NCBI GenBank assembly: GCA_963704655.1
Contig: OY969927.1
Location: 1,184,001 to 1,248,000 of the forward strand
Direction of reading: 5' to 3'
Length of the DNA: 64,000 bases
Origin: an uncultured Candidatus Babeliaceae bacterium
GTDB taxonomy: Bacteria > Babelota > Babeliae > Babelales > Babelaceae
Under the pieces are notes generated by a model. It worked only from the letters and a program-made list of their open reading frames with translations. It did not search any database and was not told the origin of the DNA. A program made the position numbers and the translations under genes. Each line of letters begins with the position of its first letter. The stretch's first letter is position 1. Shown one piece after another: positions 31,716-47,913 of the stretch.

Positions 31716-34133
31716 TTATGCCACTGACCCTTGCGTAGATTCTGGATGAGCGGGTGTGAGTTGCACTATAGCAACTGGTTTAATTTCTTGTGGCATTAAA
31801 ACGTGTTTAAGTACTTCGTTTGCGTGGTTAACCCAGATAAGATCAATATCTTTGGTAATCTCTTCAAGTCCTGCAATATCGCTCTTATTTTTATACGGCA
31901 AAATAATGTGCGTAATATGGTTTCGTTTTGCAGCCAAGATCTTTTCTTTTACGCCACCGATCCGCATAACATCACCTCGTAGGTTCAATTCCCCTGTCAT
32001 GGCGTATTCAGCATTAATAGGTCGCTGAGTAAGTGCAGAAAGAATCGAAGTCAGCATGGTTATACCAGCAGATGGGCCGTCTTTTGGAATAGCGCCTGCA
32101 GGAACGTGAATATGTACGTCATAGTCGGTGAACATTTTTGGGTCGATACTAAATTCTTGGGCATGTGCGCATGCATAACTCATAGCAGCTTGTGCAGATT
32201 CTTTCATGACATCACCAAGTTGGCCGGTGAGTAATAATCTCCCTTTACCCGGCATAGTGATCGCTTCAATTTTGAGTATTTCGCCACCAACAGAGGTCCA
32301 GGCAAGGCCGTTGGTTATTCCAACTAATGCGCGATGGTCAAATTCATCGTCAACATATTTTCTTGGCCCCAGATATTGTTCAAGGTTTTCTTGAGTAATT
32401 GTTTCAACCGTGTTTTTTTCAACAAAGATTCGGGCGATTTTTGAACATATTTTTTTCAATGTTCTATCAAGTTCACGAACCCCTGCTTCACGGGTGTAGC
32501 TATTGATAATATCAAGCAGCGTTTCTTCTGCTAATTCAAATTGTGCATTAACTAATCCGCTTTCGTTAATTGCGCGGTTAACCAGATGTTTTTTTGCGAT
32601 TTCTTTTTTCTCTTCGCTGGTGTAGCCGCTTAAATAGATGATTTCCATACGGTCACGTAACGGCTCAGAAAGATTTTCTAGGTTATTAGCAGTTGCGATA
32701 AAAAGTACTTGTGAGAAATCAAATGGGATGCCCAAGTAGTTATCGTAAAACGTTTTGTTTTGTTGTGGATCTAAAATCTCAAGCATAGCCGCTGACGGGT
32801 CGCCTCTAAAATCTGCGCCGATTTTATCAAGTTCGTCGATAATAATAACCGGGTTACATGAGCCAGCCTTGCGCATGCCCTGGATAAATCTTCCTGGCAT
32901 TGCGCCGACATAGGTTCTTCTGTGGCCACGAATTTCTGCCTCGTCTTTGACGCCGCCCAGTGATACGCGGTAATATTCTCTGCCTAATGCGCGTGCAATA
33001 GATTTACCTAAGGAAGTTTTACCGGTACCTGGAGGGCCCGCAAAGCATAAAATTGGTGCATAGCCATCTTTTTTTAATTTTTTTATCGAGATAAAATCTA
33101 AAATTCTATCTTTAATCTCTTTAAGGCCATAGTGATCTTCATCTAAAACTTGTTGAGCATGTGCAAGATCAAGATTATCTTCTGTGGTGATGCCCCACGG
33201 TAGTGAAAGTGCAAGATCAAGATAGTTTCTTAAAACCGCAGCTTCCATAGAGTCTGGGGATGTTTTTTCAAGTCTATTCATTTGGCGTGAAATTTCTGTG
33301 CGCGCTTCTTCTGGCAATGGCAATGTATCCAGTTTTGCACGAATTTTATCAACCTCTTGGGTCTCTTCATCGCCGAGTTCTTTTTTAATTGCTTTAAGCT
33401 GTTCGCGTAAGTAAAACTCTTTCTGTGATTTGTTCATTGAATCGCGCGTGCTGTTTTTAATGCGTTCTTGTGCCTGGTTTACTTCTATTTCTTGTGAAAT
33501 AAGTAAATAAAGACCTTCAAGAAATTCTATAAAAGTTCCTGATTCTAAAAGCGCTTGAGCCGCTTCTACGTTAAGCGTTAAGTGTGACAAAATAAATTCG
33601 GCAATTTTTTCTGGGTCATGCATTTTTGATAATATTAAATGGAAATCTGGGCTCAATGACTGGCCCGCAAGTGACATAGTTTCAGATATTGCTTTAATAT
33701 TTTTGATAACTGCATTAATCTCTGGCGTATCAAGATTTTCCTGAGAACTTATGCGATGTACGGTAGCATTTAATAATTCTTGGTCCGCACTGATAGCGCT
33801 GACAAAACCTTTATCAATGCCTTGAACCAAGATTTTGATGCCGCCTTCTGGTATTTTAATAAGGCGCATAATTGAACCAATAGTGCCCACTTCGTAGAGG
33901 TCCTTGGTGCCGATGGCACCTTGGTGGTTATGTGATTGCTTACGTGAGGCGATAAGGAAAACTTTTTTAGTATCATCATCGATGCTTTTTTGAATGCCTT
34001 TTATAATTCGTTCATCAAGCACCAGTAGCGGTACAATCATGCGGGGAAAAACGACGATGTCCATTGTCGGAATCACCGGCAGAATTTCTGGCGCTATGTT
34101 GTCATGAACTGACGATTTGAGATTTTTTTTCAT
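31716..34133 (-). CDS. lon: ATP-dependent Lon protease
   Basis: LON N domain, GPPGTGKTS, IDELDK, catalytic PKDGPSAG and GGVKEK. Confidence 0.98.
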   Translation of the reverse strand: MKKNLKSSVHDNIAPEILPVIPTMDIVVFPRMIVPLLVLDERIIKGIQKSIDDDTKKVFLIASRKQSHNHQGAIGTKDLYEVGTIGSIMRLIKIPEGGIKILVQGIDKGFVSAISADQELLNATVHRISSQENLDTPEINAVIKNIKAISETMSLAGQSLSPDFHLILSKMHDPEKIAEFILSHLTLNVEAAQALLESGTFIEFLEGLYLLISQEIEVNQAQERIKNSTRDSMNKSQKEFYLREQLKAIKKELGDEETQEVDKIRAKLDTLPLPEEARTEISRQMNRLEKTSPDSMEAAVLRNYLDLALSLPWGITTEDNLDLAHAQQVLDEDHYGLKEIKDRILDFISIKKLKKDGYAPILCFAGPPGTGKTSLGKSIARALGREYYRVSLGGVKDEAEIRGHRRTYVGAMPGRFIQGMRKAGSCNPVIIIDELDKIGADFRGDPSAAMLEILDPQQNKTFYDNYLGIPFDFSQVLFIATANNLENLSEPLRDRMEIIYLSGYTSEEKKEIAKKHLVNRAINESGLVNAQFELAEETLLDIINSYTREAGVRELDRTLKKICSKIARIFVEKNTVETITQENLEQYLGPRKYVDDEFDHRALVGITNGLAWTSVGGEILKIEAITMPGKGRLLLTGQLGDVMKESAQAAMSYACAHAQEFSIDPKMFTDYDVHIHVPAGAIPKDGPSAGITMLTSILSALTQRPINAEYAMTGELNLRGDVMRIGGVKEKILAAKRNHITHIILPYKNKSDIAGLEEITKDIDLIWVNHANEVLKHVLMPQEIKPVAIVQLTPAHPESTQGSVA
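31728..31753 (-). repeat. Repeat unit encoding part of the Lon C-terminal tail
   Basis: cccttgcgtagattctggatgagcgg versus intergenic cccttgcgtaggctcaggatgagcga at 56806. Confidence 0.75.
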
Positions 34134-34222: not shown

Positions 34223-35107
34223 TTATTTTTTATTAATATTCTTAATTTCTTCCAATTTATTTTTGGCAAGTTCTTGTGTAACTGGATTTATATCCTTTTT
34301 AGGAATCTTTAGAATTTCTTTATAGAGTTTTTCTGGCGCAAGGTTGCCAGAATTTATGTTAAACTTCGATTGATATGTTTGGTTTTCTTCTAATAATTTT
34401 TTATCTATGAGTTCTTTAATTTCTTGGTGTAAGTTTGACCAGCTAAATTCAGTAAAAATAACTGCTAATGTTTTTAAATATTGGGCACGAGCATAATTTT
34501 TAAGATGATTTTCAAAAGGTCTGTGAGTCGGATACGCTTCTTGAATAAACTTTGAAATTATTTTCCATTTTTCATCCTCAGAAACGGCTGGTTCAATGAG
34601 TAATTTTACATTTTTGAGTATCTCTTTGTCGACCTTTTCCTGGGCATCTTTAATTTTTTTCAGTTCTATAAGGTTAGGATTTACACGTTGTAACACAAGG
34701 CCGATCTTTAAAGGTGTACTTTTTTCAAATGGCTCGGTTAAAGGCTTTTGTTTATTCAACATTTTCAGTGCGTTTTGAAATTTTTCTTTAAACGTCTGCC
34801 ATTTTTGGCGATCTGTACTTTGATAAGATTCTTGTACCGTTTCTTGCTGTTTGAGGTGCTCTTTAATATGCGATTTTAAAATTTCAAACTCAACATAGTC
34901 TTTTTGTTTTGCCGGATTTTTAACGGCTTCTACGAGTAAATCCTTTAATGCTTTTTCATCAAGGTTTTGTTTTATGATCTGTGGTTTTGTATTTAATGAT
35001 CGCATAAGCGCTTTATAATAGCCTTCATAGAGCGGTCTTGCTCGCATGCCATTAAGGTTAAAAGGCATAAGTAATAGACCAGATAAAATGAAATTTTTTA
35101 TGCGCAT
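34223..35107 (-). CDS. Hypothetical exported Lys/Glu-rich helical protein
   Basis: Leader ending LNG|MRA. Confidence 0.8.
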   Translation of the reverse strand: MRIKNFILSGLLLMPFNLNGMRARPLYEGYYKALMRSLNTKPQIIKQNLDEKALKDLLVEAVKNPAKQKDYVEFEILKSHIKEHLKQQETVQESYQSTDRQKWQTFKEKFQNALKMLNKQKPLTEPFEKSTPLKIGLVLQRVNPNLIELKKIKDAQEKVDKEILKNVKLLIEPAVSEDEKWKIISKFIQEAYPTHRPFENHLKNYARAQYLKTLAVIFTEFSWSNLHQEIKELIDKKLLEENQTYQSKFNINSGNLAPEKLYKEILKIPKKDINPVTQELAKNKLEEIKNINKK

Positions 35108-35182: not shown

Positions 35183-35755
35183 CTACTGTTGGGTACAGCC
35201 TTCTATAGAGCGGCCAAGATAGGCAAGATGTTCGTAAATAGAACCGATATCTTCCAATTGGTCTTCATGCAGTTTTTCAGCTAAATATGAAGAAAAGTCT
35301 TGTTCGGAATTTTTTGGTGAGGGTAAAGGCTCCCGGCTGGCTATTCTTTCAGCAAAGTGGTGCAATTCAATTAAGTGGCTCGCCGCTTCAAAAAATTTGA
35401 TTTTTATTTTTCTTGTGAGCTGCCCATGGTTTGCTGTGTTTGCGATCTGTTTTATTCTCTCGCTTGAGAAAAATATATTGAAATCGGTATCTTTAGGGTC
35501 AAAATGCTCAAGTAGTCTATTAAAGCCAAAGTAAATTTGATTGTTGATAATATGAGTAAGAATGGTTTTGCAATTATCGACTGGATTTAAAAATGGAACT
35601 ATAAATTCAGGGCTTTTAAGCGCATGCGTCGAGATGGTAAGTAATATTTTATGCCGTGTGTCTTTATCAAAAGTAGCAAATAACGCTTTTGAAGCATTCA
35701 TTGCGTCAAGGGAAAAAGTAATAAATATGAAAGCTGAGAAAATTTTTTTTATCAT
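35183..35755 (-). CDS. Exported protein, tandem family member 1 (ends CTQQ)
   Basis: MIKK leader; FF(S/T)xxR and ASHLIxLH motifs shared with both neighbours. Confidence 0.8.
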   Translation of the reverse strand: MIKKIFSAFIFITFSLDAMNASKALFATFDKDTRHKILLTISTHALKSPEFIVPFLNPVDNCKTILTHIINNQIYFGFNRLLEHFDPKDTDFNIFFSSERIKQIANTANHGQLTRKIKIKFFEAASHLIELHHFAERIASREPLPSPKNSEQDFSSYLAEKLHEDQLEDIGSIYEHLAYLGRSIEGCTQQ

Positions 35756-35859
35756 AATAAAAAAATTGTTAAAAAATAACGTATTGCTTTTATTATTGTT
35801 TATTAAAAACAACAAAATCGCAATACGTTATTTTAAAAATTAAAGATGAGTCTTTTTTT

Positions 35860-36595
35860 TTATGATTGTCTGCAATCTTCAAGGGCTTGCTTTAAGTCGA
35901 TTACCTGAATGCCAGATTTAGGATAAGCACTTGGATGAGCATCTTCATAAAAGTTCATTTTTGTTTTCAGAGCATCTAACTTTTCGTTAAGATCTTTAAC
36001 GGTCTCAGAAGCTTTGTTAGTTGTATCAAGTATGCATGCTAGATTCATGGAGAAATCGTTTGGTTCGATATTTTTGCATGCTGCCAATTCCAATCTCTCG
36101 CGTACTGTTTTTGCTTCATGATGTAAAATCATCAAGTGGCCTGCAAGTTGAAAATACATTTTTTTATGTTCACCTAAATCACGAGAGCGACCATCTGCCG
36201 CCATCTTTTCAATGCGTTCATCAGTGAAGAATTTTGCAAAATTGGTATGGTTTTCATCTAAGCCTTCGGTGACTTTGATTAAAGCGGCTGCGCCTTTAAG
36301 TCTAGGCTGTTTTTCTTGTATTGCTTCTAAAAGAGATTTCCCAGTGTTTTTTTTAGTTATCTGGTTATCAAAAGCATACGTCAGGAACAGTGGTAATGAA
36401 CTTTTGTCTTTGATAACCGGAAATATTGCATCAAAGGTTTCACCTAAATTTTCTGCTGCTTCCGTTGCTAGCGCATATAAGATTTCTGCTTTTGTTCGTT
36501 GATTATCGATACTTGCGTATTCAAAAACATTAACTTCACTTGCTTGTGCAGTTGCGCAGAGTAACGTGAGTAAAAGATAGAATTTTTTTTATCAT
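35860..36595 (-). pseudogene. Exported protein, tandem family member 2 (ends CRQS), with a +1 frameshift in a poly-A tract near the start
   Basis: Frame is open from 36588 to 35860; the leader DNA matches that of 36621-37262 except for one extra A; 736 nt = 3n+1. Confidence 0.8.
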
Positions 36596-36620
36596 AATAA
36601 AGTCTATAAAAGAAGTTGTT

Positions 36621-37262
36621 TTATTGTAGTGGGCAGCCAAGTTCATAAAATTGATTTTGTGAGAAGGGTATAAGTGCTGGGCCATTAATTCTCTTTTCTA
36701 ATGACTCACGCTTTTGTTTGAGCAAATCGCTTTCCTGTAACGGGTTATGCAATCTTTTTACTAAATATGAAGCGAGACTATCAACACTATGGGTTTCTTG
36801 TATACCTATGGCAATACCATCGGCAATTTCCAATGCGTGCCCATGTAACTGAATTAAATGACTGGCTTGTGAAATATACAATGCTTTTTTATCGAAAGGC
36901 CAATTTGAATTTGTGGCTTGTTGAGCTATTTGATCTAAACGAGCATCAGAAAAGAATGTTTTAAAGTCTGTGTCAGCTTTGTCAAAAGACGTAGCAACGT
37001 TTTCTATATTACCATGTATCTGGTGATCTAAAATTTTTTTAAGTGTTTTTTCGCATATATCCCTCGATTCCAGCTCCTGAGGGTTTTCTGTTAAAAAAGG
37101 CACTATAGCAGTTTCAGGGTTTTTTAATGGTAGTGTCGATAGCCCAAGTAATACATGTAATCTTGTTGTTTCATCAAGAGAAGCAAATTTTGTAAGACTA
37201 TTTTCATTGGCATGTGCAGATGCGCAGAGTAACGTGAGTAAAAGATAGAATTTTTTTATCAT
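36621..37262 (-). CDS. Exported protein, tandem family member 3 (ends CPLQ)
   Basis: MIKKFYLLLTLLCASAHA leader; DFKTFFSDARL and ASHLIQLH. Confidence 0.82.
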   Translation of the reverse strand: MIKKFYLLLTLLCASAHANENSLTKFASLDETTRLHVLLGLSTLPLKNPETAIVPFLTENPQELESRDICEKTLKKILDHQIHGNIENVATSFDKADTDFKTFFSDARLDQIAQQATNSNWPFDKKALYISQASHLIQLHGHALEIADGIAIGIQETHSVDSLASYLVKRLHNPLQESDLLKQKRESLEKRINGPALIPFSQNQFYELGCPLQ

Positions 37263-37368
37263 ACGTAACCTTTAAAGATACGGTTTATGTGATTTTGTTT
37301 ATAACTCACATAAGTATACCTATACTGTCCCCAAATGAATAGATTCAGCGTGATAAACGTACAATTAA

Positions 37369-37443
37369 CCCTTTCCATACATTCACCTGTGGTGAACACT
37401 TCCGACTTCGCCAAGGCTTCGACGGACAGGCAGGGTGCACGGG
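37369..37443 (-). repeat. Palindromic repeat unit carrying a nested 30-bp hairpin element
   Basis: ccctttccatac-hairpin-cact[tccgacttcgccaaggcttcgacggacagg]cagggtgcacggg. Confidence 0.8.
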
Positions 37444-37463
37444 ATTTGAGTATGATAAATGTT

Positions 37464-38828
37464 TTACTTATAATTTAAGTACAGGTCGTTAACAAATATC
37501 TCTTGCGGGTCATATTGTCTTTTAAGTTTAATAAATTCATCAAACTGTGGGTATGCCGCATGAACTTGTTCTTTGGTTGCAAAGCATTGGTATGGCAAGT
37601 AAAAGGTGCCATGGCACTCGAGGGCTGCGTTAATAAGCTCGCGTGTCCAAAGCTGTGCAACTTCAAATGCTGCTTTGCTGTTTTCTAGCGATATAAAAAG
37701 AACCAGTGCGCTGCATGTTTCAGGAGCATAGCTTAAAAAGCTTGTGGTATCTTTTTTTACTAAACGAAGCGTGCCATTTAAAAGGTTCACATTATTCTTT
37801 TGAAGAATAACTTTTGCTTTATCAACGAATTTCTTAAAATCTTTTAAGGGAATAAAATATTCTTGCAAGATATCTATATGTGTCGACCTGGTTTCTTGTA
37901 AATGATCGGTAGCAAAATGCATGAAGTTATTTCTTGATTTAGTTACTTCTAATTCTATCAGATGCTTTTCTACAAATAAGCGAACATTTTTTACAAAGGG
38001 AACATCTCTCAAAAAGCCAAATAACTTTTGTGAGATATACGTTTTTATTGATGAAAGTGGCTTTAATTTCTCTGTAGTTATCTTTTTAGTGTCATGATAC
38101 GTAAGCGTAAGCATGGTATCAAAAAAATTCTCTGAGCCGATCGTAAAACGCGCAGAAAAAAGTGCAATATTATTGTTGGCAAGAGTTTTCTGCGTTAATG
38201 AGTCAAGATGTCTTTTTGTGTTAACAACCTTAACTCTTTTTTTTAACATCGTGTTATCAATAAGTTGCAAAGTAACTTCTGTGATAATGCCAAAAAGACC
38301 ATACCCACCAATAACGGCATGGTAAAGTTCTGCATTTTTAGTAGGGCTTAAGGTCACTTTTTCGCCTTGGGCATTAATAATAACCATTGAAATAACGGTG
38401 CTTCCCACTGGAGCATATCTAAAATCTTGGCCGTGGGCATTTACGCCAATAGAGCCACCAACAGAGAAATCACAATAAGACTGCATAGCAGCAACCGCGA
38501 GCCCGAACGGGTTAATATATTCTTGAATCTCTTTCCAGCTTATTCCAGCCTGAACGGTGATAGTTTTTGAACTTATATCTAAGTTTAAAATTTTGTTAAG
38601 GCCCTGTAGATCGATAACTGTTGTATCGCACAGGGTATTTTTAACACTAACCCCTTTGCCAGCGCCTTTTATGGTAACATTGGTTTTGTTTGTAGCGGCA
38701 GTTTTTACGGCTTGCTCGATTGCATCAACATTTTTGGGTGCAATTAATGTTACACTATGCGCATGTGTGGTATAGGTCGATAAAATTGTCATTAAAGACA
38801 AGAAAGTTTTTTTCAGAAATAGTTTCAT
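37464..38828 (-). CDS. FAD-binding oxidoreductase (FAD_binding_4 / aldonolactone oxidase-like) with leader
   Basis: VQAGISW, FSVGGSIGVNAHG, GGYGLFGIIT, ILQEYFIP, GTFYLPY, KRQYDP. Confidence 0.9.
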   Translation of the reverse strand: MKLFLKKTFLSLMTILSTYTTHAHSVTLIAPKNVDAIEQAVKTAATNKTNVTIKGAGKGVSVKNTLCDTTVIDLQGLNKILNLDISSKTITVQAGISWKEIQEYINPFGLAVAAMQSYCDFSVGGSIGVNAHGQDFRYAPVGSTVISMVIINAQGEKVTLSPTKNAELYHAVIGGYGLFGIITEVTLQLIDNTMLKKRVKVVNTKRHLDSLTQKTLANNNIALFSARFTIGSENFFDTMLTLTYHDTKKITTEKLKPLSSIKTYISQKLFGFLRDVPFVKNVRLFVEKHLIELEVTKSRNNFMHFATDHLQETRSTHIDILQEYFIPLKDFKKFVDKAKVILQKNNVNLLNGTLRLVKKDTTSFLSYAPETCSALVLFISLENSKAAFEVAQLWTRELINAALECHGTFYLPYQCFATKEQVHAAYPQFDEFIKLKRQYDPQEIFVNDLYLNYK

Positions 38829-38899
38829 AAGTTAGGTCTCCAAAACGCTTAATTAATTCTATTATTAATATTGGCATTATGGGGAAAATTTGTCAAAGG

Positions 38900-38915
38900 G
38901 CCCTTAATTAAGGGC
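38900..38915. promoter_or_regulatory. Perfect 16-bp palindrome between back-to-back TTGACA boxes
   Basis: gcccttaattaagggc; TTGACA on minus (38896-38891) and on plus (38942-38947). Confidence 0.5.
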
Positions 38916-38986
38916 TCTGGATGCTCATATCTTCGTGCAAATTGACAAATAAGCAATATGCTATAAGCTTATTAGTATAAAGAAAT

Positions 38987-40702
38987 ATGAAAGAAAAAAT
39001 AATGAAGTTAATTAAACTAGTGGCCGTTGCTGTAATAATGGCATTCACCCTTCAAAATAGTGCACATGGCCCAGAAAGCCATTTACATAACGTTTTTTAT
39101 ACCCCTGCATTGCGCGAGCAATTTAGCCTGTTTATTGACAATGTTTTAAAACAGGTCCCTTCGACAGATTTTTTTGCGCATATAGATAAGATGCCGGGTA
39201 TTGGTTTTGTGCCTACTGATAGCGATGTTTATGAGCAATTATTGCCTGAAATTAACGCCTTAACGCCACGATTTTCACTTTATTATAAAATGGCATCATT
39301 GCAGAACCAGAAAAGTGTTCTTTCTGGGCAAATTCAAGAGCTTTTAGCTGATAAAAAAAGTATAGATGGCTGTGTTGAAATAGGTGGTCCTGGTACTTAT
39401 ACCAGCTGCATCAAAAAATTTATAACCGTTACTGGCGATATTTATGCAATAAATGATAAGCAAGAGGCAAGTGACCGTATTAAAGCATTTAGCTTTAACA
39501 TCAAAAACGGGTTTTTGCCGTATAATCATTTTGTGCCATTACAAGATTACGCGTCTATCGCCGAAGAAGTTATTCCAAGTAATAGTGTAGACTTGGTCAT
39601 CTGTGCTATTGGGTTGCACCATATTCCTGTAGAAAAATTATCTGATTTTGTTGCATCGATTCATAGAATCTTGCGCCCAGGTGGCACATTTATTGTGCGT
39701 GACCATGATGTTATTAATGATGATATTATGGACTTAACCCATGCTGCGCATAGCGTATATAATCTGCTTATGGTTAATGAGCCGTTAGAAAACGAGCGAG
39801 CAGAATTTAGAAACTTTAAAGCATTATCTTACTGGATTGAACTTTTACAACAACACGGTTTTGAAGTTGGCTCTGAGCGCCTTTTACAAAAGGGTGATCC
39901 AACACATAACACGATGTTAAAATTTACAAAAATTGCACAAACTGAGCCTGAAAAAGTTTTGCAAATTTCACATGATATAAGCAAAGAGCCTGGGTACCAA
40001 GCCAAGTTTATTGATACTTTTTTAAAGACCACCGAATGGTTTAATGTTGATATGACGCAAGAGTATGCAAAATTTATCGATTATAGGCCCTTTTATGAGT
40101 TTCCGTGGTTTGAAAGCGTTGGTCTTTATTGGGATCTATTTGCAAAATCGTGGAAAGTTGCTGCTAAAAAAACAAGCCATTGGGCTGTTTTGAGTTCAAC
40201 AGAGACAGGGATGAATCTTTTTATCGGTGTAACTATGACATTAGAATATGTCGCTAAAGGTATAATATCATGGCCTATTCGTATGGCTATTGCAGGTGTT
40301 GCTCCAGATAAAATTACCCTGTTTATTAATGATCGTGACAATAATGTTGAGTCATTTGATAGTCGCATCAAAATCGCTCAGCAGTATGCCAATAGCAGCC
40401 TTAAAGTTATTGATACTCCACGTTATAAAGAGTTTTTAGATATCTTGGTGGAGCTTAAAAAGTCGAATATAACTATTCTAGAAATTGCCGGTAATAAAGA
40501 GATTCAGATAAAAGTTCGCAAGAAAAATAGTATCCCTATGAATCTTACTATCCAAGGCACTGCAATCTTATACGATTGGCAGATCCCTACGCAGCAAGAT
40601 TATACCTATTATGCTTTATCTGTGCAGGTAGATAAACTTCTTGATGTCATGAGAGATTTTTCTGCTCACGGTATTGAAGTTTTATACGTTCATGATTTTT
40701 AA
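38987..40702 (+). CDS. Class I SAM-dependent methyltransferase-domain protein with leader and uncharacterised C-terminal half
   Basis: VEIGGPG, SNSVDLVICAIGLHH, LRPGGTFIVRDHD. Confidence 0.85.
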   Translation: MKEKIMKLIKLVAVAVIMAFTLQNSAHGPESHLHNVFYTPALREQFSLFIDNVLKQVPSTDFFAHIDKMPGIGFVPTDSDVYEQLLPEINALTPRFSLYYKMASLQNQKSVLSGQIQELLADKKSIDGCVEIGGPGTYTSCIKKFITVTGDIYAINDKQEASDRIKAFSFNIKNGFLPYNHFVPLQDYASIAEEVIPSNSVDLVICAIGLHHIPVEKLSDFVASIHRILRPGGTFIVRDHDVINDDIMDLTHAAHSVYNLLMVNEPLENERAEFRNFKALSYWIELLQQHGFEVGSERLLQKGDPTHNTMLKFTKIAQTEPEKVLQISHDISKEPGYQAKFIDTFLKTTEWFNVDMTQEYAKFIDYRPFYEFPWFESVGLYWDLFAKSWKVAAKKTSHWAVLSSTETGMNLFIGVTMTLEYVAKGIISWPIRMAIAGVAPDKITLFINDRDNNVESFDSRIKIAQQYANSSLKVIDTPRYKEFLDILVELKKSNITILEIAGNKEIQIKVRKKNSIPMNLTIQGTAILYDWQIPTQQDYTYYALSVQVDKLLDVMRDFSAHGIEVLYVHDF

Positions 40703-41049
40703 TAGTGAAGATACTGAGCATTTTTTGTGTCTTTAAGCGCTTGTAGCGCTTCAGGAGCATCCGCAAAAATTGCTGCCATGAGTTTCGTTTCTTTCGATAT
40801 TATTTCCGTAGCTTTTAAATTATTAACAAGCTGGAAAAAATATCGTAACTCTTTCTGGGTAGTTTTGAGTACCTCAGAAGGTTTTAATGTTTTTCCCCCG
40901 AGTGCTGAAACGATATTTGAGTTGTTTACAAAAAGTTCAAAACCATTATTTGTTAAACGGTCCCTGAGCATGTTTTCAGAAGGAATGGTAACTTCCATTG
41001 CTTGAGCTACACAAGGCAAAAGCAAGCTACATAAAAATATCTTTTTCAT
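40699..41049 (-). CDS. Hypothetical exported protein
   Basis: Leader ending AQA|MEV. Confidence 0.8.
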   Translation of the reverse strand: MKKIFLCSLLLPCVAQAMEVTIPSENMLRDRLTNNGFELFVNNSNIVSALGGKTLKPSEVLKTTQKELRYFFQLVNNLKATEIISKETKLMAAIFADAPEALQALKDTKNAQYLHY

Positions 41050-41081
41050 AGACTCTTCCTATAAAAATGTCTGAGTTTATT

Positions 41082-41576
41082 TCAAAATTCATTATCATCT
41101 TCAAAAGATTTTATAATCTCGTTAAGGGCGCGTTGCTTAGGTGAACCTTCCCAGATTCTTCTTTGGAGTTCATTCACGCATTGTTCAGCATAGACAGCTT
41201 CCTTATAAGTTAATTTTTCGCGTGCTATAAGTATATATTTGGAGGAGTCTAGGATACTTTCTGCTTTATTAAAGATAGCGAGTATAGGCAATTCTCTTTC
41301 TAATAAGTGTATTATCACATTATCTTGTATAGGTGAGCAATGTACTGCGATATCGATTGCGGTTAATTCTGTTACTTCATAGCCCTTAAATAGTGATGAT
41401 AAAAGCAATATTCCTGAAAGTGTTTTTCGAGGGAAATATGTTTCTAATTCTGCTACACGATCTTCTAGATTTGGGAATTGTCCTAAAAGGTTTAAAGCCT
41501 CTTCAACATTACTTTTTTCCATAGCATTGCAGCTTAGAATGACAGATATTCCTATAAGAAGTATCTTTTTTACCAT
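41082..41576 (-). CDS. Hypothetical exported protein
   Basis: Leader ending CNA|MEK. Confidence 0.8.
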   Translation of the reverse strand: MVKKILLIGISVILSCNAMEKSNVEEALNLLGQFPNLEDRVAELETYFPRKTLSGILLLSSLFKGYEVTELTAIDIAVHCSPIQDNVIIHLLERELPILAIFNKAESILDSSKYILIAREKLTYKEAVYAEQCVNELQRRIWEGSPKQRALNEIIKSFEDDNEF

Positions 41577-41711
41577 TGAGAGCCCTTTTTAAACGAGACT
41601 ATATTCTTAAGGTATCCCTTTTTTCTACCTCTTGCCAATAAATTTTAAATAAAATAGTTTTTGTTATACTATTTAATGTTTTGTACAATTACTATTTTTT
41701 AGGGCAAACTT

Positions 41712-42425
41712 ATGCAATTTCATATAAAAAACATTTTTATTATTTTAGCTTTTTATGCTTTTTCCACTATTCCTGTTTGCGCAATGAATGCAAATATGCA
41801 AAAAACGCTTGACGCTGTTGAAGCTAACATTGAATTGGCTGAGCGCATCAAGGATGAGACAGAACAAGAATTTAAGACTCAAAAGGAATCTTTTGATGCA
41901 TTGGGTAAAGATTTCTCTACCAGCCAAGAGTATCAGCAACTTCGCGTTAAAATTGATACCTATAGAGCAGCTAGAGAAGTACTTACTTGGGAACAAATAT
42001 CTTCTGGAAGGTTCTGTCCAGTTGACTCAGAAAGATTTTCTAAGTATTGCTTAACCCGGGGTTTGCACTATCAAGGAGATATGTCTTATCAGGGAGATAC
42101 GTTTTCAGACAAAGAGGAGGAAGTTGAATTGCAAAAGATTGAAAATAATATTGAAAAAACGATTAGAAATCATAAAAATCCTCGAATGGCTGCCTTGATT
42201 GCACGTATGCAACATGATAAAAAACAAAATAAGAAACAAAAACTGGATAAAATAGCTGAAGCGAATTTTCATCAGGCATATTTATTAGAACAGCTTATCT
42301 TTGGGTTAGTAACTAAACCATTATCTGAAGAACAGTTTAAAGAACTAGCTTCTAATGGTTTTGATAAGAAAAAATTGTCTGCTATGATTCGCTCGTATAG
42401 AATTTATAAGAGTAATGATGTGTGA
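41712..42425 (+). CDS. Hypothetical exported coiled-coil protein
   Basis: Leader ending VCA|MNA. Confidence 0.8.
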   Translation: MQFHIKNIFIILAFYAFSTIPVCAMNANMQKTLDAVEANIELAERIKDETEQEFKTQKESFDALGKDFSTSQEYQQLRVKIDTYRAAREVLTWEQISSGRFCPVDSERFSKYCLTRGLHYQGDMSYQGDTFSDKEEEVELQKIENNIEKTIRNHKNPRMAALIARMQHDKKQNKKQKLDKIAEANFHQAYLLEQLIFGLVTKPLSEEQFKELASNGFDKKKLSAMIRSYRIYKSNDV

Positions 42426-42454
42426 TTAAAGATTAAATAAAATAAAGGTACATT

Positions 42455-42943
42455 ATGAAAAATAGTTCAAAGATATTGTTGTTGATCGCATTTATGGGCA
42501 TGGGGACAGTTACCATTTATGGTGGTGACCGTAAAGTTCTAGGCAGGGTTAATGATAGTGGATTGAAAAAAAATCTTCTTGGGGCAAGTCTTGGGGCAAG
42601 TCTTGGGGCAAGTAGTGCACCCACTCGTGAAAAAAGGTTATATTCGAACTGGGTCCAGGGTTCATACTACTTAGGTTTCGACTTGGGCTTGCCAGATGTA
42701 AGTTCACTTTCAATTAAAGATATGACGAGACAAATGCCAAAAGAAGGTGTGGATGGAGAAACGTATAATGCTGTATTAGAAAATGGTGATATTTTAGAAG
42801 TAACTTATTTTCATGCAGGACCAATGAAAGGTCAATTTTTGGGTAACCATTTTTGCCAGGATGGTGTTAACGGTTACAGCGTAAGTGCGGAATATTTTAA
42901 TAAGATTAAACAACGTTATGAAGAATTACAAAAACCTCGTTGA
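42455..42943 (+). CDS. Hypothetical exported protein
   Basis: SD aaaggt; hydrophobic leader. Confidence 0.8.
   Translation: MKNSSKILLLIAFMGMGTVTIYGGDRKVLGRVNDSGLKKNLLGASLGASLGASSAPTREKRLYSNWVQGSYYLGFDLGLPDVSSLSIKDMTRQMPKEGVDGETYNAVLENGDILEVTYFHAGPMKGQFLGNHFCQDGVNGYSVSAEYFNKIKQRYEELQKPR
42577..42613 (+). repeat. Perfect in-frame 12-bp tandem repeat x3 (LGAS)
   Basis: (tcttggggcaag)3. Confidence 0.95.
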
Positions 42944-43221
42944 ACCTTTGTAGAAAGAGATTCAAATAATTAATAGATTAAGAAAAAAGAGGGACTATTT
43001 TTAAAATAGTCACTCTTGCAATAGATGGTAGTAAAAAACTACTTATTTTGTAAGATATTCTTGAATTCTGAATAATACGCGCGCGAAGTTGTTGCGTTCA
43101 AACGTATATTTTTCTTCAGCTGTTTGTGCGTCACTTGCTGTTCTAATAAGAATATTGCACTATATAGGGCAGTTTTGTTATCTTTTGTATAGGGTTTATT
43201 TAAGTTCACAAATGGGGGGCC

Positions 43222-44145
43222 ATGATGAAGATACAAATCTATACATTAATACTTGTATCTATGTTGTCTATTTCGGCAATGGAGCTACAAAAGACAAAGT
43301 CTGAAGGCGATGCTTTTAATGGGGCGCTTGACTCAGGTGATTTAGAAACGATGCTCACGCAGGCTGAGCAACTTTTTGATAGTGACTATCTTCAGGCATG
43401 GGCATTGGCTGAAGCCGCAACTGCCTTTGCAAGAGAAGGCGAAGCAGCATACTTTCTAGCGCGTCGATTTATTCCCGAAATAAGTAATTCAATAAAACGG
43501 CAAGAAGTATTGGATGGCAAACAGACCGGGGAATATCTCTTAAACCGAGCATGCTCGCAAAATAATCCCGCAGCAAAAGAATTTTTTAAAGAGCTTAATG
43601 GTCAGGAATTTCAGCATTCTACAACTCATGATAAAAGTAGAGCAGAATTTGAAGAGTATATACGATCGAGAAAACAATTAAGAGCTGAGGATTTTTTACG
43701 TAATGCACAAGGGTGTAGTGAGCCTGGCCATTCTGGCGATTTTAGACATCATTTACGTGGATTAACGTTGGCAATGATCGGTTTTTTTCAATACCCAGAT
43801 GACCACAATCTGCCATTCTGGATCGCACAATTTGCCAGCAATCGACAAGCCAATAAATCATATAAAGATTCTGGGGACTTTCAACATCTATTTTCTCCAA
43901 ATATACCGCTTGCTGAAAAATATTTAGCTTTTGCAAGCAAAGGGGAAGCTTCTACTCAAGCACGCATATTGCTGTTACAAGCACATTTAAACCGGGACAA
44001 AAAAACTGATAATCCGCGCGAATTATATAGCGAAGCACTTGCTGCGCCAGACTTTCATACATTGCCTGATCATGTAAATCTTAAACGTTCTATCGAGCGT
44101 GAAATACATACGTGCGGGGCATCATGCGGTTGTGCTGTATTATGA
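43222..44145 (+). CDS. Exported helical-repeat (Sel1/TPR-like) protein with C-terminal CaaX motif
   Basis: Leader ending ISA|MEL; YLLNRACSQNNPAA and LAEKYLAFA; ends CGASCGCAVL. Confidence 0.82.
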   Translation: MMKIQIYTLILVSMLSISAMELQKTKSEGDAFNGALDSGDLETMLTQAEQLFDSDYLQAWALAEAATAFAREGEAAYFLARRFIPEISNSIKRQEVLDGKQTGEYLLNRACSQNNPAAKEFFKELNGQEFQHSTTHDKSRAEFEEYIRSRKQLRAEDFLRNAQGCSEPGHSGDFRHHLRGLTLAMIGFFQYPDDHNLPFWIAQFASNRQANKSYKDSGDFQHLFSPNIPLAEKYLAFASKGEASTQARILLLQAHLNRDKKTDNPRELYSEALAAPDFHTLPDHVNLKRSIEREIHTCGASCGCAVL

Positions 44146-45024
44146 TGCGCCCGTTGCCTTGCATAGATCACTTATATCACGATCAAGCATTTTAATGCTG
44201 TCTTTACAGCTATTCATGATAGCGCGCGAGGCATGTATCCCTTCTGGGCCTTCGGGATTGCCAAAGCTTGTAAGTACTTCCATGAATGTAGGATTTGGCA
44301 ATTTACTGTAGATCGTTAATTCGGTTTCAGTAAATGGGAAAGGAGCAAGTTCAATCATCGCTTCTTTATATTTTTCTAACTTTCTTTTACGTTTTGCCAA
44401 CTGTAAAACTAGTGCACTTGCTGGCACTTTTTCTGTAGCATGTGCAGTGCATAATGCAACAAATTTACTTAATTGATCTGGCATTGTATAGAGCCCTTTG
44501 CCAACATAGTATTGCGGATCAAAATTATTGTTTGGCTTTGTATGCTCAGGATTATTTGAAGAAAGAAATGTTTTATAATCTGTAAGGCCAAAATTCGTGC
44601 ACTTTTGGGCAAACTCTGGGGCTGTCACCTTAAGTTCAGAGCGTTTTCTAAGTTCTTGATGCGTATCAATGATGGTATTAAAAATTTGTGGGCGAAGTGC
44701 GATTAGTTTTTTCCAATTTGTAAGCGTTGGTGTAGGGTATCGATTTTTATAATATTCGTTTAATGCTGCAAGCCCTGCAACGGTTATTGCGCATGTTGCC
44801 GAAGATGCTGGCAGACTTATGATATATTGGGCTACCGCTGCAACAGGAAGTGTCAATATAAAAGCTGGCACTGTTGCGCCAAGCCCTTCTTGTACCGCTT
44901 GCGCATGTAATTCTTTGTCTGTTGGATCTGGCGGCAGTTCGTCCATTGCCATAAGTGGGAGTATGCAAAGTAGTGAAAGAAGATAGAAGTTAATGATATT
45001 TTCCCTGTTGTTTTTATTCGTCAT
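44140..45024 (-). CDS. Hypothetical exported protein with two hydrophobic segments
   Basis: Leader ending LMA|MDE; start uncertain. Confidence 0.75.
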   Translation of the reverse strand: MTNKNNRENIINFYLLSLLCILPLMAMDELPPDPTDKELHAQAVQEGLGATVPAFILTLPVAAVAQYIISLPASSATCAITVAGLAALNEYYKNRYPTPTLTNWKKLIALRPQIFNTIIDTHQELRKRSELKVTAPEFAQKCTNFGLTDYKTFLSSNNPEHTKPNNNFDPQYYVGKGLYTMPDQLSKFVALCTAHATEKVPASALVLQLAKRKRKLEKYKEAMIELAPFPFTETELTIYSKLPNPTFMEVLTSFGNPEGPEGIHASRAIMNSCKDSIKMLDRDISDLCKATGAS

Positions 45025-45343
45025 CTTGCCAGTCTTTTTTTGTTGAGCAGGTATGTTCCACGGGTATGAGATAAAAGTTTTTTATACCTTCACCTGTAGA
45101 ATTTGTACTCACACGATAACAATTTAAGCCAGTTTCTTCATCATACACTATAGGCCAATTTCGTGGAACCGGCTGCCATTGGTCTTCTGAAAATCCTTGA
45201 AAATGACTCAGTGCATAGGATGTTGTTTTTTGTAATCCATTGATAGTCAGGAGAGTCGAGAAATTCTTGAATGAGTGCCAGGCCAGCTGTTAATTCTGGA
45301 ACCGCACGCAATTTGTCTAATTTTTACTATCTCACGTAATGTT

Positions 45344-46720
45344 TTACGGGACAAGGGTATCAAGAATGAATTCGGACCATGTCTTTTCATAGCGTAAATC
45401 AAAAAGATACTGCAAAAACCATTGCATATCTTCAGGAAATGACCGGTAAATATCATTCATTTGGTCACGGTCCAATTTTTTATTATTTTTTTCAATGAGA
45501 CTACTTATCGATAACGGAAGCCCTTTATTTTTGCTGGCAATAAGCAACAATACAAAAAGTTTTTGTTCCAACGTTGGTGCATGCTTTTTTCTGCTATTAA
45601 AAAAATATTCTGTCAGTTTTTCTTGTGGGTGCCAAAGGTATATACCTTCATGCGTGGCACATTGGTTTTCTACAGGGTTCCATGCAAATGCCATTTCATT
45701 TGAAGGGAACTCAAGTTTATGCATGAGCTCTTCTGTTGTATGGTTAACGATATAAATGCCATTATACTCACTATTTTCTTTGTAATACGTAGCCGCGATA
45801 TAGTTGCCATCTGGTGACCACGCGAGGTTTTGTATTTTATTATCCTGCTCATGAACAGGCGCTATCTCTTTTCTATCAGATAGTTCATATGCATCATCCA
45901 GCGCATATGTTGTTATTTGGCTCTCTCCTGAAAACGCAATATGCGTCCCCAGTTTGTTAAATATTAAATTTTCATAAAGTCGCGATTCTGGCGCGACAGG
46001 AGGAATTATTGTCTTTTTTAAGCCTTCAAGAGCATCATATACCGTTACTCTATCGTGGCAAACTAAAATAAATTCTGGTTTAATGGGGTGCCAGGCCAAA
46101 TTTTTTGAATCATCTCCAAAATCACTGCCGTATTCCGTTTGCGTGAAAGGCATAGATTTAATTAATTTTTTTGTTGAAAGGCAATAGGTAGAAACTCTAT
46201 CATTTTTAAGCGATGCAAATAAATCATGGGATGGGGATATAAATAACTCGCTACCCGCTTGATATATCTCTTGGCCGGTATTCATATCGATGAACATGTA
46301 TTTGCCAATTGAGGCTACATCGTTATGGGCCCAGCTTATTTTGCCAGTGGAAAGGAATGGGCAAATGACTTTGGCGCGCTGTATTCTTTTTGCGGTTTTT
46401 ATACATGAAAGGTACCAGATGTCATTCCGTACCGCAAGTTGAGTGCCATCTGGGTTCCATGCCAGCTGCTTAATAAAATTATTAACGGGTATCTTTTTGC
46501 AAAAGTGCATATCGGGCAGCGTTTTAAGCGCATTTTTGAGCATATATCCAACAATATGATCTTTTATTTCATCGGGTAATCTATTATCAAAAAATGGCAC
46601 TTTTGCTTTTTGATCTTGCTTGTTTATTATGCGCTCACCCGCTGCGGTGATAAGAAGATCAGTGATGGGGGCAAAAAGACAGGGACAACAAAACGTGAAT
46701 GCTAATGCTATCTTATTCAT
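45344..46720 (-). CDS. Exported WD40-repeat protein with F-box-like motif
   Basis: ATGA overlap with the upstream stop; FDNRLPDEIKDHIVGYM; LAWNPDG, LAWHP, LAWSPDG. Confidence 0.88.
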   Translation of the reverse strand: MNKIALAFTFCCPCLFAPITDLLITAAGERIINKQDQKAKVPFFDNRLPDEIKDHIVGYMLKNALKTLPDMHFCKKIPVNNFIKQLAWNPDGTQLAVRNDIWYLSCIKTAKRIQRAKVICPFLSTGKISWAHNDVASIGKYMFIDMNTGQEIYQAGSELFISPSHDLFASLKNDRVSTYCLSTKKLIKSMPFTQTEYGSDFGDDSKNLAWHPIKPEFILVCHDRVTVYDALEGLKKTIIPPVAPESRLYENLIFNKLGTHIAFSGESQITTYALDDAYELSDRKEIAPVHEQDNKIQNLAWSPDGNYIAATYYKENSEYNGIYIVNHTTEELMHKLEFPSNEMAFAWNPVENQCATHEGIYLWHPQEKLTEYFFNSRKKHAPTLEQKLFVLLLIASKNKGLPLSISSLIEKNNKKLDRDQMNDIYRSFPEDMQWFLQYLFDLRYEKTWSEFILDTLVP

Positions 46721-47913
46721 ATAAAAAAACATAATGCCTCTGATACTGGGCGTTCATGGTATACCGTTTGGCTCTCTGTAGAGTTTTTAATAAAATAACA
46801 TGCTGATGGTTGATTTGGTATGGTGTCTTTAAGATACAGCGTGGTGCATCCACCGCCGCCGATATTTAATGCATCGGTGCATCCTAGGTTTTGCATAAAT
46901 TCTGCAAGCTCCGGCATGCTTATACCTTCACTGTCTTTGGTTCGCCCTTCAACAACAACTATACAGAGTTGATTATTTGTGGTTATGCCGACTGCAGTGC
47001 GTGGGTGGCGTTGGTCAATAAGCCAATGTTGCATCTGCGTGGTATGAAAATCTGCCGCGACTTCGTCATTGCAATGCACAATTTCCTGCCCTTGGCTAAA
47101 CTCTTCAAAAAGCTCTTGCTGTTGTATGGTGCCATTATGTATCAGTAAACCTGCGCCACCAAGTACAAAATCATAATCGTTATAGGTTGTTGAATTGTCA
47201 GCTGATGTAACTTCAAGTTTTAAGGTCACCGGCATGCCCTTTTGTAGATCGCATGCGCTTTCAGAATCAACTTGGTATACATAGGTGCCATTTTTAATTT
47301 CTGGTATATCATGCGTGACATTTTGCACGGTGCCATCTGCAATAATAATATTCTTGCCCGGTGTGTGGTTCAACAAAAATGCATCAGCGCATGGTGTGTA
47401 TAAAACTGATTGGCCATAAACTCGTGGCTGGTTAACGTGATCAACGGTATAGCGTTTGTTATCACTAGAGAAATCTATCTTTAAAAATGTTTTATCAATT
47501 GTTGCCTTTTTAGTTTTACTGTTCCAACCAAAAGAGCCACGGGTAAGTTGAAGATCGGAATAAACCTTTTTATCAAGATATAAAAGATTCACTCTATTGC
47601 CATTATATTTTCCGCCACGTCTATAGTTGCTGCCATTAACTGCAAGTAATGCATTGCATCGTTTTGCTATACTGGAGACCTCTTCACGTTGACCCAGGGC
47701 AGGGACAAGTTTAATATCGACTGTATCTAATGGCAGGGTGATGACATGCGCATTAAGGGGAAATTCTGTTGCAGTATAGCGAGCATATAAGATATCAGTT
47801 TCTAACTGCTGAGTTTCTTGAAGGTGCACTTTTATCGCAAAAGATTGTTGAATAATTAAAAGTGCAATAAGTGATAAATTTGTGATGCGCAATAACGTAT
47901 TTTTTTTGATCAT
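46717..47913 (-). CDS. Phosphodiester glycosidase (NAGPA) family protein with leader
   Basis: RHPRTAVG, VVEGR, ELAEFMQNLGCTDALNIGGGG, ERPVSEAL. Confidence 0.85.
   Translation of the reverse strand: MIKKNTLLRITNLSLIALLIIQQSFAIKVHLQETQQLETDILYARYTATEFPLNAHVITLPLDTVDIKLVPALGQREEVSSIAKRCNALLAVNGSNYRRGGKYNGNRVNLLYLDKKVYSDLQLTRGSFGWNSKTKKATIDKTFLKIDFSSDNKRYTVDHVNQPRVYGQSVLYTPCADAFLLNHTPGKNIIIADGTVQNVTHDIPEIKNGTYVYQVDSESACDLQKGMPVTLKLEVTSADNSTTYNDYDFVLGGAGLLIHNGTIQQQELFEEFSQGQEIVHCNDEVAADFHTTQMQHWLIDQRHPRTAVGITTNNQLCIVVVEGRTKDSEGISMPELAEFMQNLGCTDALNIGGGGCTTLYLKDTIPNQPSACYFIKNSTESQTVYHERPVSEALCFFI

Follow-up and report, generated by a model that had tools for sequence, protein, structure and literature searches.

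Three adjacent open reading frames (ORFs) of an uncultured Candidatus Babeliaceae bacterium encode related proteins that combine a Sec-type leader with a C terminus of the form Cys-x-x-(Q/S). They lie in a 64,000-nucleotide stretch of genome assembly GCA_963704655.1 (contig OY969927.1, positions 1,184,001 to 1,248,000), here called the window, and positions are counted from its first nucleotide unless a genome or locus handle precedes them. We refer to these proteins and their homologs as family A. In the reading that we favor, and to which we give about an even chance, family A comprises Sec-exported, host-directed proteins whose C-terminal box would be farnesylated by the host. An earlier note, made from the letters and ORF translations of this DNA, had read the Cys-x-x-(Q/S) ends as candidate boxes for farnesylation by the host. 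That proposal passed the computational tests, with a second family ending in C-a-a-L, an excess of Cys at position -4 [Cys(-4)] among leader-bearing proteins, no disulfide genes, a disordered tail and favorable farnesyltransferase (FTase) scores, but Cys(-4) occurs in only 7 of 12 members, and prenylation and arrival in the host cytosol are what we infer. The source genome is a single contig of 1,298,077 bp with 38% G+C, is 96% complete and belongs to the Dependentiae (TM6), Babeliaceae. Members of this phylum occur widely, hardly any are in culture, and they live as obligate parasites inside protist cells.

The three ORFs are arranged head to tail on the minus strand (35183-37262) and end in CPLQ, CRQS and CTQQ in copies 1, 2 and 3, respectively. 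Copy 2 is 29% and copy 3 37% identical to copy 1 (range within the trio, 29 to 37%), and all three share the core T(D/N)FxxFF(S/T)xxR ... A(S/G)HLxxLHxxA. ORFs and translations bear out the tandem arrangement, the ends and the core as first described. The core was rightly called unrecognized, as family A gave no match past the cutoff in Pfam or NCBIfam, and the tails before the terminal Cys are indeed unlike, their lengths differing by tens of residues across family members. All three leaders have an n-h-c layout, an h-region of about 12 residues, small residues at -3 and -1, and AxA-like cleavage sites (AHA, AQA and LDA, read by eye). The MIKK start claimed for all three is present in copies 1 and 3, but in copy 2 only if one A is discounted (see below).

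Of 41 genomes searched in full, 4 have family A; these 4 belong to a single genus, out of 36 genera sampled. An 8-member profile searched against 1.84 billion representative proteins gave 14 matches at E ≤ 0.001, one of which was a repeat artifact. Homolog searches returned only the query when copy 1 (P0003) was used alone, and only P0003, P0006 and one fragment when a 12-row alignment was used. A fourth, distant paralog of 284 amino acids, ending in CSIM, is found elsewhere in the source genome.

Cys stands exactly at -4 in 7 of the 12 reasonably full members (CPLQ, CTQQ, CRQS, CSIM, CRVQ, CNMQ and CPLQ), including 3/3 window copies, and all nine members with a Cys in the terminal region have it within the last 10 residues. 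Only 6 columns of the 8-member alignment are invariant, and the C-terminal Cys is one of them. A maximum likelihood tree, with terminal branches of a median 1.36 substitutions per site, places the seven Cys(-4) members in both main groups (3/6 and 4/6) and needs at least four changes of Cys(-4) state; this feature is thus old and has been kept, but also lost, repeatedly. In seven lineages of both subgroups, the three residues after the Cys and the preceding tail changed while the Cys and its 3-residue spacing were kept. Judged from these alignments, the pattern goes beyond chance.

The family A motifs are of the non-canonical CxxQ/S type of Ydj1, Nap1 and Lkb1. Boxes of this type are prenylated in yeast without further processing. 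None of the seven motifs has a charged residue at a2 (Q, Q, L, I, V, M, L) or a K, R or P at X, which is always Q, S or M; of the C termini of the source genome, a fraction of 0.63 passes this a2/X rule. X is Q in five of seven, versus 4.9% Q at the C termini of the genome (nominal P = 5e-6, which ignores shared descent). The motifs were compared with excerpts of the complete yeast CXXX screen by Kim et al. 2023 (PMC10320760), in which an HM cutoff of 3 was right for 45 of 48 tested motifs (93.8%). According to the excerpted data, the yeast Ydj1 HM scores are 4.99 for CTQQ, 4.84 for CRQS, 4.82 for CPLQ, 4.97 for CRVQ, 5.74 for CNMQ and 3.76 for CSIM, which puts all six distinct motifs above the yeast FTase cutoff of 3 (range, 3.76 to 5.74). 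The corresponding Ydj1 enrichment factors are 1.54, 1.90, 1.32, 2.35, 2.10 and 0.56, compared with 1.61 and 1.63 for the known farnesylated CASQ and CKQQ and 0.41 for canonical CVIA (PMC10320760); the value for CSIM resembles the canonical controls in these excerpts, unlike those of the five non-canonical motifs. The same excerpts describe Ydj1 as following a prenylation-only pathway, and the only positive pattern they give for the Ydj1 data is Q at X (PMC10320760).

Profile searches of the source genome gave no match to PPTA (protein prenyltransferase alpha repeat) and no Rce1-like (CPBP) protein. Prenyltrans (PF00432) gave no match either, but its control matched in no genome, so this search is uninformative. 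An ICMT Pfam match in the source genome (24.5 bits) was set aside, since the protein is a DUF1295 membrane protein (E = 2e-74) and not evidence of a bacterial CaaX methyltransferase.

We counted Cys at the C termini of the whole genome, using a crude ORF set (longest ORFs chosen greedily) and a leader class defined by a permissive heuristic, not SignalP on called genes. Of all 1,357 ORFs, 33 have Cys at -4, versus 13 to 27 at each of the remaining nine of the last ten positions. With ORFs shorter than 80 amino acids left out, the leader class (n = 590) has 18 Cys at -4, whereas its other 19 terminal positions average 6.8 and reach at most 13 (Poisson P = 2.8e-4). For non-leader ORFs in the same length range, the count at -4 is 13, compared with an average of 9.5 and a highest value of 18. 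At least four leader-like Cys(-4) proteins were put into the wrong class by the heuristic. When 400 kb from each of four other Dependentiae genomes was treated in the same way, leader-class Cys(-4) counts were 8 in G008, 4 in G040, 2 in G047 and 1 in G023. The eight in G008, which represents another genus of the same GTDB family, compare with a mean of 1.9 elsewhere. The Cys(-4) excess is therefore genuine in some lineages but does not extend evenly over the phylum.

A second leader-bearing family, family B, has one member in the window (Table 1) and 10 reasonably full members, all from one genus (4/41 genomes, 1/21 genera), with distant members 21 to 26% identical to the first. Seven of the ten end in C-a-a-L (CVLL, CAVL, CQIL, CVIL, CVIL, CTIL and CVLL), and the exceptions end in ...SIFE, ...FSLL and ...EGYR. 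In most members, a PPxY-like motif (PPPY, PPAY, PPDY, PPCY or PPSY) comes directly after a Sec-type leader, and several have an extra Cys just before the box (...SCGCAVL, ...VCCQIL, ...GCCTIL). PPxY motifs can bind WW domains, and Cys residues upstream of a CaaX box can be palmitoylation sites. Elsewhere in the source genome (G000:C1:120323-124831), one family B copy is split by a frameshift (120323-121036 plus 121015-121293), and another ends in ...SIFE, without Cys.

Other Dependentiae carry such ends on unrelated proteins. Five of the eight leader-class Cys(-4) proteins of G008 (loci L106, L107, L110 and L119) are leader-bearing ankyrin-repeat proteins ending in CLLS, CLVS, CILS, CYMF and CLLY (Ank_2, E = 4e-28 to 1e-78), and a sixth is a leucine-rich repeat protein ending in CDLF. 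The box-bearing ankyrin proteins belong to a very large paralog family, most members of which have no box. An F-box-like LPxEL(K/I)LHI near their N termini was noticed by eye only; Pfam gave only ankyrin families (E ≤ 0.01). In G040, a leader-bearing ORF of 438 amino acids (G040:C1:222206-223522, minus strand; L153) ends in KKRTKKCHIM, which joins a polybasic stretch to a CaaX box. The Cys(-4) set of G040 also includes a CVIC end.

The structure of paralog 1 was modeled with AlphaFold2 from the 12-row alignment. The model is all-alpha, with a predicted local distance difference test score (pLDDT) of 84.0 and a predicted TM-score of 0.79. Since residues 201-213 fall below a pLDDT of 50 in this otherwise confident model, the C-terminal tail is predicted to be disordered and accessible. 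Foldseek gave 0 matches at E ≤ 0.001 against the PDB (best E = 0.32, TM about 0.2), and its FAT, Bak/Bcl-xL, ClyA and diphtheria-toxin rows were dismissed as too weak to be meaningful. VIA-align against 48,161 chains reached at best Z = 5.0 over 105 residues, to a designed nanocage; according to the search tool, chance scores are usually far higher for helical models. BFVD gave no structural match to the core, and the ESM Atlas no usable match. Modeling and fold comparison, proposed as a check on the core, thus yielded a confident all-alpha model without a meaningful match to a solved fold. Family A is a lineage-specific, tandemly expanding family of small all-alpha proteins, and its modeled core appears to be a new family resembling no solved fold.

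The terminal Cys might instead serve on the bacterial side or extracellularly, in the periplasm or at the cell surface, through an intermolecular disulfide or dimerization, as a metal or cofactor ligand, or as an envelope tether. A disulfide is the obvious alternative, because the mature parts of copies 1 and 3 contain exactly two Cys each. The leaders predict export to the periplasm, nine members keep the Cys among their last 10 residues, including those without it at -4, a second Cys is conserved in the short subgroup, and the family A box has no second membrane signal beside it, all of which fit such a role. Nevertheless, no DSBA, DsbB, Thioredoxin_4 or VKOR was found in this 96%-complete genome, whereas the controls matched in 3 to 9 of 14 reference genomes. 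Even Cys counts are reportedly to be expected, after Dutton et al. 2008, in exported proteins of disulfide-forming bacteria. No such bias was seen here, with 215 even and 264 odd counts in the leader class (45% even) and 206 and 252 among non-leader ORFs (45%). All six short members have the internal Cys, P0010 and P0014, which lack a terminal Cys, among them, and long members with a terminal Cys do not have it; as each occurs without the other, they are not an obligate pair. Without machinery, parity bias or a consistent partner, a structural disulfide was rejected. In the model, the terminal Cys lies in the disordered tail, and a bacterial-side role would leave unexplained the exact -4 spacing in seven members, the preference for Q at X and the parallel CaaL family. 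We consider such a role unlikely.

Several observations weigh against farnesylation by the host. Five of the 12 family A members lack Cys(-4): the Cys is displaced to -6 in P0004 (...CEQGQM) and to -10 in P0008 (...CPYLERITQQ), and P0010, P0013 and P0014 have no terminal Cys. Among these last three, only P0010 is confirmed complete, a gene with its own stop directly upstream of Lon on a metagenome contig. Conservation of Cys(-4) among homologs, the lack of which the earlier note listed among its grounds for refutation, therefore holds in part only: seven members have it and five do not, the complete Lon-adjacent P0010 among them. The family A box has no adjoining polybasic stretch or second Cys, and one of the three window copies is frameshifted as assembled. 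The FTase scores discriminate weakly: all six motifs pass the yeast cutoff, but so do most CXXX sequences in the excerpted screen (PMC10320760), so that the scores indicate compatibility, not specificity. Farnesylation would also presuppose passage from the periplasm to the cytosol of a putative host.

The genome-wide evidence calls for similar caution, beyond the crude ORF and leader calls. An enrichment of Cys(-4), also proposed as a test, is present within the leader class, but the contrast of leader with non-leader ORFs is weak (20/606 versus 13/751; Fisher P = 0.076), and the excess is uneven among genomes, the four others totaling 15 versus 8.8 (P = 0.037). When families A and B are counted once each, about 14 versus 6.8 remains. 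Twelve of the 18 leader-class Cys(-4) tetrapeptides pass a simplified FTase rule, compared with a base rate of 0.61. At 72 Lon-flank loci of other Dependentiae, no clear excess was seen (10 at -4 versus 2 to 12 elsewhere).

Some of these points would be expected if the end had no special function, the Cys-x-x-x being inherited in a young, fast-evolving family and kept by inertia, and the genome-wide excess being an artifact of paralogy and crude calling. The members are related and so not independent, five of 12 lost Cys(-4) but kept the gene, the leader-class tetrapeptides are not enriched for FTase substrates, and three of the four other genomes have little or no excess. However, Cys and spacing persist over a median of 1.36 substitutions per site with their neighbors changed, an excess is left after the two families are collapsed, and unrelated leader-bearing families share the feature with canonical boxes. 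Inertia therefore strikes us as a distinctly improbable explanation.

In a third alternative, the N-terminal hydrophobic segment would be an uncleaved signal anchor, and the proteins would remain in the inner membrane, exposed to the periplasm and out of reach of host enzymes. The evidence for cleavage consists of AxA-like sites read by eye, which leaves some room for an anchor. Against it stand the n-h-c layout, the small residues at -3 and -1 and the short h-regions, and an anchor would leave the C-terminal pattern unexplained; we hold it to be very unlikely. Two further classes were rejected, a bacterial lipoprotein because no [LVI][ASTVI][GAS]C lipobox is present (the sole leader Cys, in ..TLLCAS.., is preceded by Leu, as read by eye), and a C-terminal sorting tag (GlyGly-CTERM, PEP-CTERM, MYXO-CTERM) because only three residues follow the Cys. 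In such sorting tags, the motif precedes a transmembrane helix and a basic tail.

The earlier note saw a paradox in proteins that reach the host cytosol "despite Sec-type leaders." This part of the argument does not stand. Excerpts of the report on Chromulinavorax destructans give 44% of coding sequences with a signal peptide and present Sec as the presumed effector route (PMC6561590). They also describe this signal-peptide set as enriched in ORFans and in ankyrin proteins presumed to act on the host, and the bacterium as replicating in the host cytoplasm and appearing to shed vesicles (PMC6561590). Our leader heuristic selects 606 of 1,357 ORFs (45%) in the source genome, in line with the 44% of Chromulinavorax. 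Given the share of signal peptides in the phylum and the published expectation that effectors, including ankyrin proteins, leave through Sec, a Sec leader would be the expected mark of a host-directed protein and no obstacle.

Profile searches whose positive controls matched found no VirB4, FHIPEP or VipB in the source genome. Two secretin genes (open frames of 802 and 818 amino acids, about 4 kb apart; G000:C1:1068670-1073730) are the only outer membrane export candidates both searched for and found. Under host farnesylation, the Sec leader, predicted from its sequence features to be cleavable, would take the protein across the inner membrane. The protein would then exit through one of the two secretins or in outer membrane vesicles and arrive in the host cytosol. 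There, host protein farnesyltransferase would farnesylate the flexible Cys-x-x-(Q/S/M) box, and the farnesyl group might anchor the protein at membranes or partners of the host or direct it there.

There are established precedents for bacterial effectors that are prenylated by the host. In the excerpts available on Legionella, host prenyltransferases lipidate the Cys at -4 of AnkB and Pel/CAAX proteins, which is required for membrane localization (PMC13081727; PMC2916131). Legionella is likewise an intracellular bacterium, adapted to amoebae; family A shares the Cys(-4) end of its effectors, and the ankyrin-plus-CaaX layout of the G008 proteins resembles AnkB. In contrast, the Legionella effectors lack a Sec leader and enter the host by injection through the Dot/Icm type IV system, whereas every family A member has a Sec-type leader and the genome yielded no VirB4, FHIPEP or VipB. 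The lack of a dedicated injection system (type III or type IV secretion) is the main departure from known host-prenylated CaaX effectors. In addition, the family A core is unrelated in sequence to the Legionella CaaX effectors and has no fold match, its boxes are non-canonical CxxQ/S, and family A is known here from sequence alone.

Salmonella SifA is reportedly a host-prenylated type III effector with a C-terminal CaaX. For Salmonella GtgE, the source in excerpt states that a C-terminal CaaX promotes association with host membranes (PMC13423502). Both resemble family A in their CaaX end but are delivered by type III secretion, belong to other protein families and come from animal pathogens. 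Ydj1 (CASQ), Nap1 (CKQS) and STK11/Lkb1 (CKQQ) fall into the same motif class as family A (Cys, non-aliphatic a1/a2, Q or S). They are, however, made in the host cytosol, whereas family A is bacterial and leader-bearing and has no DnaJ, NAP or kinase homology by Pfam. The putative signal-peptide effectors of Chromulinavorax are from the same phylum and share the export logic of family A. A full-text search, outside which most subscription journals lie, found no paper linking Dependentiae with CaaX or prenylation, nor a relevant one on CaaX and Sec-dependent effectors. The host-prenylation trick is thus known; the phylum, the protein family, the non-canonical box and the delivery logic implied by the leader are new.

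More broadly, we suggest tentatively, and with less than even confidence, that Dependentiae use eukaryotic lipidation signals (CxxQ, CaaL plus Cys, polybasic, ankyrin-CaaX) to direct a whole group of Sec-leader proteins to membranes of the host. If the boxes are used, Sec-exported proteins must reach the host cytosol without a recognizable type III, IV or VI system, which would imply an uncharacterized secretin- or vesicle-based route. To our knowledge, a C-terminal prenylation box is usable only in a eukaryotic cytosol, so a conserved box on a leader-bearing protein would be direct sequence evidence for delivery from the periplasm to the host cytosol without such systems. We know of no account of which Dependentiae signal-peptide proteins act inside the host and how they get there; a terminal CaaX could then serve as a sequence-only marker of true cytosolic effectors among the approximately 44% of proteins with signal peptides, and as a simple handle for effector finding in this phylum. 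Host-prenylation mimicry, so far a matter of injected Legionella and Salmonella effectors, would extend to another phylum and another export logic.

Copy 2 is frameshifted as assembled, because its A tract is eight bases long and that of copy 1 seven (Table 1). Its MIKK ATG (36593-36595) is offset by one base from the frame of the long ORF, and the frame of this ATG reads MIKKILSFTHVTLRNCTSK, then a stop. The long frame has TGA TAA directly upstream, and its first in-frame start leaves only 114 amino acids. The A8 tract could be a homopolymer assembly error, the mark of a recent pseudogene or a slippage site. Public contigs (4 runs, 2 studies) are identical to the window over their span, which excludes the A8 tract and most of copy 3. 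When abutting ORF pairs near homopolymers were counted roughly over the whole genome, assembly errors were not separable from operon neighbors. The leader DNA of copies 1 and 2 (first ~55 coding nucleotides; compared over 36510-36660 and 37180-37330) is nearly identical except for the extra A, whereas their mature parts are 29% identical, which suggests gene conversion or recent leader swapping between the two.

The Lon protease gene was used as a conserved anchor of the locus. The closest relatives of this Lon are 94%, 94%, 89% and 89% identical, all from Candidatus Babeliaceae or Dependentiae, and its further matches are mostly from Babeliales, Dependentiae or TM6. As in the window, three related assemblies and one metagenome contig have family A genes upstream of Lon. 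As their number varies from 1 to 3 per Lon locus, the family A locus is expanding and contracting quickly. The only family A gene on the metagenome contig (L183:137-703) is 36% identical to copy 1 and lacks a terminal Cys, and the contig has no counterpart of the 294-amino-acid neighbor. The visible part of its Lon (338 amino acids, open at the contig end) nevertheless starts with the residues of the window Lon, as compared by eye, and the family A locus thus differs sharply between close relatives.

In G004, a genome of the same genus, the family A pair is followed by a leader-bearing J-domain protein (L003:2257-3402; DnaJ, E = 4.7e-14) that may be secreted and mimic a co-chaperone. The leader-bearing 294-amino-acid neighbor between family A and Lon in the window matches only the C-terminal part of this G004 protein (BLASTP, 37% identity over 113 amino acids, E = 1e-13), and a Pfam search found no J domain in the window protein itself.

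Table 1. Positions in the window of the family A genes, their parts and the surrounding features
Feature	Position	Strand	Description
Family A paralog 1 (P0003)	36621-37262	minus	213-aa (amino acid) ORF, MIKKFYLLL start, CPLQ end
Paralog 1, leader	~37209-37262	minus	MIKKFYLLLTLLCASAHA, then NEN
Paralog 1, CPLQ codons	36624-36635	minus	
Paralog 1, stop	36621-36623	minus	
Family A paralog 2 (P0002)	35860-36595	minus	Stop-to-stop frame 35860-36588, 242 aa, CRQS end; reads KKFYLLLTLLCATAQA/SEV
Paralog 2, CRQS codons	35863-35874	minus	
A8 homopolymer	36583-36590	minus	Breaks the paralog 2 frame; A7 at the corresponding site of paralog 1
Family A paralog 3 (P0001)	35183-35755	minus	190 aa, MIKKIFSAF start, CTQQ end; leader MIKKIFSAFIFITFSLDA
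Paralog 3, CTQQ codons	35186-35197	minus	
294-aa neighbor	34223-35107	minus	Leader-bearing; between family A and Lon
Lon protease	31716-34133	minus	Conserved locus anchor
FAD-binding/ALO-like oxidase	37464-38828		Sec-type leader
Class I methyltransferase	38987-40702		571 aa, Sec-type leader
116-aa ORF	40699-41049		Sec-type leader
Family B member	43222-44145	plus	307 aa, leader, ...CGASCGCAVL end (canonical CaaL box, extra Cys before it)
NAGPA (phosphodiester glycosidase) domain protein	46717-47913	minus	Leader-bearing, CFFI end

On the other side of family A, the next three genes (37464-41049) all have Sec-type leaders, and five Cys(-4) ORFs fall within about 12 kb of the window (35183-47913). 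The leader-bearing neighbors and this cluster of Cys(-4) ends suggest an island of exported proteins around family A.

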